This document shows positions 19,451 to 19,797 of a DNA stretch of 64,000 nt, piece after piece. The notes beneath the pieces are model-generated. The model saw only the letters and a program-made list of their open reading frames with translations. It made no database searches and had not been told where the DNA came from. The translations under genes and the position numbers were made by a program. How positions within the stretch are numbered: the stretch's first letter is position 1; every line of letters begins with the position of its first letter. The DNA comes from Eledone cirrhosa (taxonomy: Eukaryota). The stretch covers positions 180,420,001 through 180,484,000 of the forward strand of contig OZ024741.1 of NCBI GenBank assembly GCA_964016885.1, read 5' to 3'.

Positions 19451-19797
19451 ATTTTCGAATATTCTATGTCTATATTCACATATATATCGCTATTTCAGAG
19501 CATTTATTCCAATTTCTAATTTCTGCCGGACCGGCAACCGCTCTTTCAAACCAGTTCCTGTACACAGCTAAGTATTCTATAAGTCTCTAGCTGTGTCATT
19601 CTCGATAAAAGCACTGGATATGTAGTCCTGATGATTTCTAACGAGAATGAAACGCGTAGATTACTTCCCTTGCTTTTATCGAGAATCTAATTGTAATACG
19701 TGACGTATTCTATTCTATAGCGATTAGGTCTTCAAAATGTTTATTATAAACATACAGAATATTTTCGAATATTCTATGTCTATATTCACATATATAT
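19451..19797 (+). mobile_element. 310-bp-period non-coding hammerhead unit with 30-bp terminal direct repeat (retrozyme-like or solo pLTR)
   Basis: attttcgaatattctatgtctatattcaca at 19451 and 19761; HHR inside; TA arrays on both sides. Confidence 0.7.
19622..19664 (+). ncRNA. Minimal type I hammerhead ribozyme
   Basis: gtagtc CTGATGA t-ttct-aacg-agaa-t GAAA cgcg TA gattac; palindromic stem III ACGCGT, GUA cleavage triplet. Confidence 0.82.

Follow-up and report, generated by a model that had tools for sequence, protein, structure and literature searches.

Positions 19451..19797 of the window, the whole 64,000-nt stretch of Eledone cirrhosa DNA that was analyzed, hold a one-armed retrozyme insertion on the + strand. 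This solo copy is 1.1 units long, and its unit is 99.7–100% identical to units in genomic arrays. It lies between two (TA)n tracts, as the first-pass annotation had noticed, and adjoins a young copy of a Penelope-like element (PLE). The locus comprises the following features.

16948..19398, + strand: young PLE copy adjoining the unit, with an inverted arm from 16948 and the 3′ part of its RT-endonuclease to 18815
Near 19140-19178, + strand: minimal hammerhead in the pLTR of this PLE; the pLTR ends at 19338 and about 19398
19395..19450, no strand: left (TA)n flank, common to the tail end of the adjoining PLE
19451..19797, + strand: solo single-arm insertion, 5′-truncated at unit position 310/1, with site A as its 3′ end
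19452..19761, + strand: 310-nt repeat unit in arbitrary phase, a predicted circular RNA monomer; the period in genomic arrays is 310
19478..19487, + strand: priming site A, an internal AU tract at unit positions 27-36, with 1,311 genomic ends and primer-mismatch scars
19488..19502, + strand: motif between the priming sites, formed by the 5′ strands of P1 and P2
19510..19518, + strand: priming site B at unit positions 59-67, the end point of the opposite arm; 1,293 genomic ends
19486..19724, + strand: closing helix P1 (19486-19493 with 19717-19724), from fold and covariation
Inside P1, + strand: helices P2 (19497-19501/19540-19544), P3 (19524-19536), P4 (19562-19596), the long stem and P5 (19695-19709)
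19598..19686, + strand: 16-bp stem that carries the ribozyme and holds the A>G sites 156, 157, 159 and 227
19622..19664, + strand: type I hammerhead of the dimer type (stem III is palindromic), with the predicted cut following 19658
19737..19774, + strand: hairpin P6 (19737-19753) and a UUCG-capped hairpin (19757-19774) just 5′ of site A, with compensatory changes in both
19790..20461, no strand: right (TA)n flank, the target that primed at site A

Elsewhere in the window, a tRNA-like head at 25736-25793, probably that of a SINE, is the sole Rfam match, and a second hammerhead unit lies at 59660-60260 on the minus strand. A 27-nt pattern from this second unit has only 16 exact genomic matches; two exact matches lie 531 bp apart, which points to an older, mostly monomeric family with units of ~530-550 bp.

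The insertion had been described as bounded by an exact 30-bp direct repeat. The exact repeat at an offset of 310 is indeed present, but it spans 37 nt (19451-19487 = 19761-19797), of which the first 30 are unique and the remainder blends into the TA flank. It is simply the result of 1.1 rounds of copying, in which site A is reused at 19788-19797. Because it contains a single ribozyme, the window copy cannot release a unit-length circle. It is an ordinary dead-end member of its family and belongs to the minority of insertions that have an A arm alone, the other arm having been either not made or not retained. Sequence near-identical to window positions 19452-19790 also occurs in six public sequencing runs under four organism codes (the kind of run is unrecorded), and two of the six assemble the unit as a self-overlapping 340-nt contig, a result that tandem DNA gives as well.

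The minimal hammerhead at 19622-19664 is present as first read, with its type I arrangement, palindromic stem III (ACGCGU) and GUA cleavage site. Stem I is formed by GUAGUC and GAUUAC, core nucleotides occupy 19628-19634, GAAA lies at 19649-19652, and a U-U apposition sits at the base of stem II. The perfect 16-bp inverted repeat around the ribozyme (19598-19613/19671-19686) was likewise confirmed, and the resulting stem would hold the two cleaved ends together. Rfam returned no hammerhead match for the unit at either the gathering or the E-value threshold, only chance matches driven by TA, and the hammerhead call therefore rests on the hand-read motif and on covariation. The ribozyme core carries no fixed variant among 127 loci. 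The U-U mismatch, previously suspected of being a defect of this particular copy, is family-wide, with U-U at 102 of the 127 loci and A-U at the other 25. The axolotl ribozyme HHR_Amex2, which cleaves as a dimer, is reported to have U-U at this position as well (PMC7229834).

Folding of the 310-mer gave a structure more stable than those of 100/100 dinucleotide shuffles (z −4.27). The additional hairpins proposed in the first pass are present, with the correction that the 7-mers aatacgt and acgtatt are separated by one base and thus form 6 bp with a 3-nt loop. Covariation among copies had been named as a requirement for the structured-RNA reading, and covarying stems do appear once older sister families are included. 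These families have units of 313-322 bp and share the scaffold with the young family; their ribozyme stems differ. Site B keeps its place with respect to the motif that lies between the two priming sites, and a U3-A8 variant of the hammerhead core occurs in some subfamilies. That motif (19488..19502) is common to the sisters, which were selected on the motif itself, and its partner strands are also conserved; with the sister-type next base it has 5,489 genomic matches. Older sister retrozymes with short twin arms and the U3-A8 compensatory core change were seen at L033:4382-4721 and at L121-L150.

In a set of 17 natural copies (5 from the young family and 12 older), 96.4% of cells are paired and 13 of 43 pairs have changed on both sides, compared to 31-46% paired in slid controls; kinship inflates such counts, and the pair-count shuffle control was reached by 90 of 500. 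Two-sided changes affect 7 of the 11 scored pairs in the 16-bp stem and 3 of the 4 pairs in stem II. Across families, the ribozyme part varies and the priming domain is kept. In core and stem II, the window copy hardly differs from the pLTR of PLE family E (11/300 shuffles score as high), and an older sister subfamily resembles PLE family B. Judging from these likenesses, ribozyme modules may be taken from PLEs.

Genome-wide counts were made with exact patterns for the ribozyme core, end A and end B. The 31-nt core pattern has 4,574 exact matches in the 3.0-Gb genome, and the array-end patterns have 1,311 (site A) and 1,293 (site B), with no matches for any control. The core matches and the fixed ends in TA agree with the earlier suggestion that small, structured units with a ribozyme have spread through the genome as a family and insert into TA repeats. 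There are at least 1,300 insertions, and the family is very young, with ~0.14 single-unit changes per 310 bp. The 130 loci that we mapped come from the initial 220 Mb of contig C1 and include nearly every locus listed there, whether paired or unpaired. They hold ~1,170 units, and scaling from them suggests a genome total of 11,000-14,000 units.

The main feature of the family, not visible in the window copy, is a pair of arrays placed head-to-head. Among the first 100 A ends, 70 have an opposite-strand B end no more than 16 kb away. The mapped loci comprise 108 with one A arm joined head-to-head to one B arm, 17 with a single arm and 5 others, and none of the 130 combines two A arms or two B arms. 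The patterns used to pick 120 of these loci were end patterns, which require TA on one side. The ribozyme core alone served to pick the other 10; TA-type repeats bound every one of these, and 9 have two arms. The tandem period is 310, and an arm can reach ~27 units. Insertions are made of 310-bp units only, without an LTR pair around a unique interior and without the ORF for RT and GIY-YIG that marks an autonomous PLE. With a hammerhead in each unit, dispersed tandem repeats in the 150-450 bp range and no LTR pair, they have the genomic attributes of non-LTR retrozymes. The flanks are (TA)n, in which target-site duplications are unreadable. At one locus (L050:1350-1621), 272 nt of unrelated GC-rich sequence with no match in the PLE loci compared lie between the two arms, perhaps another RNA captured by a template switch.

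The first-pass annotation proposed an analysis of end permutation. The outer ends are not permuted; they occupy two fixed positions ~33-38 nt apart, site A for one arm of an insertion and site B for the opposite arm, both in (TA)n, and the A-to-B stretch corresponds to a PLE-type tail. At A ends, the target (TA)n overlies the internal AU tract, and mismatch scars lie inside this tract in 58 of 89 cases. The B ends fall into few classes with shorter homology. Scars within the annealing tract are found on both kinds of end. The motif at 19488..19502 is a candidate binding site for a PLE protein. The inner 5′ ends are scattered, and the junctions between arms mostly involve 1-7 shared bases. Only 3 of 156 5′ ends fall at the cleavage site (8.6 expected), and 49 of 156 fall at whole rounds (33 expected, p 0.003). 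Every unit at L064, L240 and L254 carries a C-to-T change of the kind usually seen as a priming scar at site A, which suggests that templates can derive from array ends.

The two arms of an insertion share one template. Among 64 loci in which both arms measure at least 700 nt, and for which 25 haplotypes were distinguished, both arms carry the same haplotype at 62; 9.3 such loci are expected, and the maximum in 10,000 permutations is 18. In the first 78 loci, 109 variants are fixed in both arms and none is fixed in one arm only. Private fixed variants occur at 0.17 per locus, and single-unit variants at 0.14 per unit. Since these rates are about the same, each insertion looks as if it had been amplified from one unit. 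Moreover, 22 variants are both fixed and private. The shared haplotype, together with private variants that are fixed in every unit, indicates one template, most likely a circle read repeatedly, which is the simplest template. A cleaved linear monomer was considered as well and rejected, because 5′ ends avoid the cleavage site and arms run for many units. Reads across the 19760/19451 junction, proposed earlier as a check for circles, are of no help in this regard, as that junction is genomic in every tandem array.

The spectrum of fixed variants may carry a trace of RNA editing. Variants were counted in 127 loci, leaving out L106 (a duplicate of L054) and the rearranged L103 and L118, with 30 nt masked at 5′ ends and 14 nt at 3′ ends. 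The direction of substitution is given relative to the window haplotype, and position 192, where A is the majority, was counted as G>A. A>G makes up 12 of 38 fixed but only 8 of 126 single-unit substitutions (p 1.6e-4), and its fixed excess also stands out against T>C (p 0.007) and C>T (p 9e-4). Fixed changes in helices include nine A>G (four in the 16-bp stem), one T>C and no C>T. At sites 156, 157, 173 and 227, A>G recurs, with two to four backgrounds per site. Of the 24 four-gamete conflicts, 20 disappear once the five A>G sites present at more than one locus are removed; among 15,504 five-site sets, 43 achieve as much. Location in helices and recurrence on different backgrounds are what editing of the template by ADAR would produce.

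This A>G signal was noticed post hoc in the first 87 loci. In the later 40 loci it has the same direction and is not significant alone, with A>G at 3 of 12 new fixed compared to 3 of 35 single-unit substitutions (p 0.16; for 6/22, p 0.07). Octopus RNA editing is reported to be exceptionally frequent, and ADAR to disfavor a 5′ G (PMC5625713). A 5′ G precedes 1 of the 12 A>G sites compared to 16 of 91 adenosines, a difference that is not significant. A test for purifying selection was negative, with no depletion of fixed variants from helices overall (p 0.84, with L041 also dropped). If the template is a circle, editing of that template by ADAR is, on the substitution spectrum, the somewhat more probable source of the excess.

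For the editing step only, a rival account retains a substantial, though lesser, share of the probability. It holds that the A>G excess arose from selection for G-U pairs together with recombination between haplotypes, or from a polymerase error bias. An A-U pair that becomes G-U preserves its helix, template switching between haplotypes does happen (L075), and the second sample, as noted, is not significant alone. However, a change of G-C to G-U (C>T) would be equally tolerated and is the commoner single-unit change, yet it is fixed in helices nowhere, compared to nine times for A>G. Recombination should scatter all variants, whereas the conflicts center on A>G sites, and errors of the RT should appear among single-unit changes, which are poor in A>G. 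A test for purifying selection was negative, with no depletion of fixed variants from helices overall (p 0.84, with L041 also dropped).

Some single-unit variants are shared between arms, in register at L060, L075 and L117 and at offset registers at L049, L236, L241 and L258. Such sharing needs a multimer template, a switch of template or later conversion in a minority of events. One could imagine that the same PLE twin priming generally uses a linear read-through multimer from an array already present, with circles, if they form, as by-products and with arrays that grow by DNA-level slippage. This account would also suit the report that the anole PLE acts predominantly on uncleaved RNA in vitro (PMC11167929), the weakness of stems II and III in the ribozyme, and the finding that 8 of 9 Xenopus retrozyme dimers are not cleaved in vitro (bioRxiv 10.64898/2026.07.22.740005). 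We nevertheless regard it as unlikely. Of 102 single-unit substitutions testable in both arms, just 14 are shared in register; six of these occur in arrays too short to reveal heterogeneity, and the other eight come from four loci. Furthermore, truncated copying of a multimer only shortens it and offers no way for a new variant to reach all units; the fixed private variants described above nonetheless number 22. At L236, the A>G change at position 173 is present in all A-arm units and in only the last two of six B-arm units, as if the template had changed during copying.

Twin priming of both arms can also be weighed against an origin in which target priming yields just one arm and fold-back self-priming yields the inverted one, as proposed for PLE palindromes (PMC3846280). 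Shared haplotypes would follow automatically from such a process, and there is a modest excess of near-palindromic junctions, in which the two 5′ positions are nearly equal (~12 of 79, compared to ~5 expected; counted by eye, with 4 ambiguous). However, 5′ positions are mostly unrelated between arms, either the A or the B arm can be the longer (p 0.13), and single-unit variants are not mirrored about the center. Because the outer ends of both arms are fixed and bear priming scars, we favor two priming events and consider fold-back improbable.

The likely source of the enzyme is a PLE, and candidates are at hand. The adjoining PLE has the same tail and inverted-arm layout as the retrozyme in unrelated sequence. 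Its family consists of many 98-100% identical, TA-targeted copies with a 4.28-kb tandem unit, intact 1,267-aa ORFs that contain an Asn-rich insert, and two ends 60 nt apart, each followed by ATATCG. The best named relative of its protein is an Octopus vulgaris protein (69% identity), and Pfam gave a weak RVT_1 match on a fragment and nothing on the full ORF. PLE family E (L311:2800-7000) has a GIY-YIG endonuclease, a ~3-kb microsatellite-rich pLTR and 30,451 end copies; many of its copies are tiny head-to-head palindromes in TA, and a young subfamily has repeated 758-aa frames and a tail of ~62 nt. PLE family B has the closest tail geometry, and its endonuclease matches run from 96% downward without a young cluster, which marks it as old. 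Both young PLE families have tails of ~60 nt, compared to 33-38 nt in the retrozyme. The adjoining PLE is a candidate helper only, and the young subfamily of family E also fits in age. No PLE arm is joined directly to a retrozyme arm among the 17 single-arm loci. At L226, a family E remnant lies beyond a short TA run.

The unit had been described as dissimilar to the neighboring PLE and to the 59.7-kb unit, and this holds, as 34, 60, 38, 6 and 67 of 100 shuffles score equally high. A comparison with the full PLE addressed the concern that the unit is the distal part of the PLE pLTR; no similarity was found, and the unit stays independent of it. Among the PLE families sampled, no homology to the retrozyme scaffold was found in the adjoining PLE, in 50 GIY-YIG loci or in family E, which matches only in the ribozyme core and stem II. 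Although the unit adjoins the PLE tail across 55 bp of TA and the L186 array is also next to a copy of that PLE, it is most improbable that the unit is a fragment of the adjoining pLTR, or that it is a DNA satellite whose ribozyme motif is incidental and which spread through recombination, given this lack of similarity, the dispersed insertions with fixed ends in TA, and the compensatory stem changes and U3-A8 core swap in sister families.

With a probability of roughly 0.7, we propose that these insertions constitute a very young family of non-LTR retrozymes whose twin arrays in TA repeats likely arise through a dimer of PLE RT-endonuclease acting with one RNA circle. Arrays would be transcribed, and adjacent hammerheads would pair via the palindromic stem III and cut out 310-nt monomers, whose ends the long stem may hold for ligation. 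ADAR would sometimes edit stem adenosines of the unit RNA, as the spectrum hints. Both strands of a (TA)n target would then prime, at site A by 8-10 nt of AU pairing and at site B ~33-38 nt downstream; this footprint is seen in the genome, and the enzyme is presumed. Each strand appears to be extended by <1 to ~27 units from the same template haplotype, and the two far ends are joined, mostly via few shared bases.

The complete scheme, in which a PLE dimer conducts twin rolling-circle target-primed reverse transcription of one 310-nt circle and ADAR edits enter every germline unit, is more tentative, and we place it a little short of an even chance. If it is true, recurrent heritable change in the element comes mainly from RNA editing, and the genome keeps a record of how a circRNA that nobody has yet sequenced is edited. 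The family would then be an instance in which edits made in RNA may pass into heritable DNA.

Earlier views of retrozyme integration, and of the tail and inverted copy of PLEs, were based on co-occurrence, pLTR similarity and one in vitro system. Because this family is so young, each of its insertions is a readable record of one reaction, and that record shows two priming sites, one per strand, one template haplotype and many rounds. The family cleanly documents how twin priming of the PLE type proceeds in vivo, with an RNA circle as the probable template. It also supplies a non-coding substrate of 310 nt, its start sites already mapped, on which rolling-circle twin priming by PLE proteins can be tested.

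Among known systems, the metazoan non-LTR retrozymes of coral, mussel and axolotl (PMC7229834) likewise have tandem structured units of 150-450 bp with a type I hammerhead and without LTRs, and the U-U-bearing HHR_Amex2 of axolotl works best as a dimer. That study hypothesized circRNA templates and PLE helpers. Circles were demonstrated there, whereas here the integration footprint is read directly from the genome. Its main text mentions no inverted arrays, orientation, microsatellite targets or octopus, and its supplement may differ. The vertebrate non-LTR retrozymes (bioRxiv 10.64898/2026.07.22.740005) are similar in their PLE dependence and in the coexistence of monomers, dimers and multimers. 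However, 24 of 57 Xenopus families match Repbase transposable elements, mostly pLTRs, whereas no pLTR match was found for the scaffold described here in the PLE families sampled; in addition, arrays in those genomes are proposed to grow by local unequal crossover, whereas those described here are born long. The text of that report mentions no tail or inverted arrays, and we found no description of head-to-head retrozyme arrays with tails in open-access full text, although supplements may show such layouts.

The Chlamys MRC1-type elements (PMC8557442) are also non-autonomous PLE dependents that form multicopy head-to-tail insertions. They differ in resembling their helpers at the 3′ end and in belonging to a clade without canonical hammerheads. 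The PLEs themselves (PMC8557442, PMC3846280) have a 30-40 bp tail at one end, a head-to-head inverted and 5′-truncated copy, and microsatellite targets. Unlike them, the retrozyme has no ORF, and its repeats are of unit length rather than the partial tandems of PLEs. The anole PLE (PMC11167929) nicks and extends both strands in vitro from two internal RT start sites that bound the tail, and it started at non-homologous sites, whereas site A uses 8-10 nt of target homology. The retrozyme family has the hallmarks of PLE-type integration, namely a tail at one end and, in 108 of the 130 mapped loci and not in the window copy, the inverted copy.
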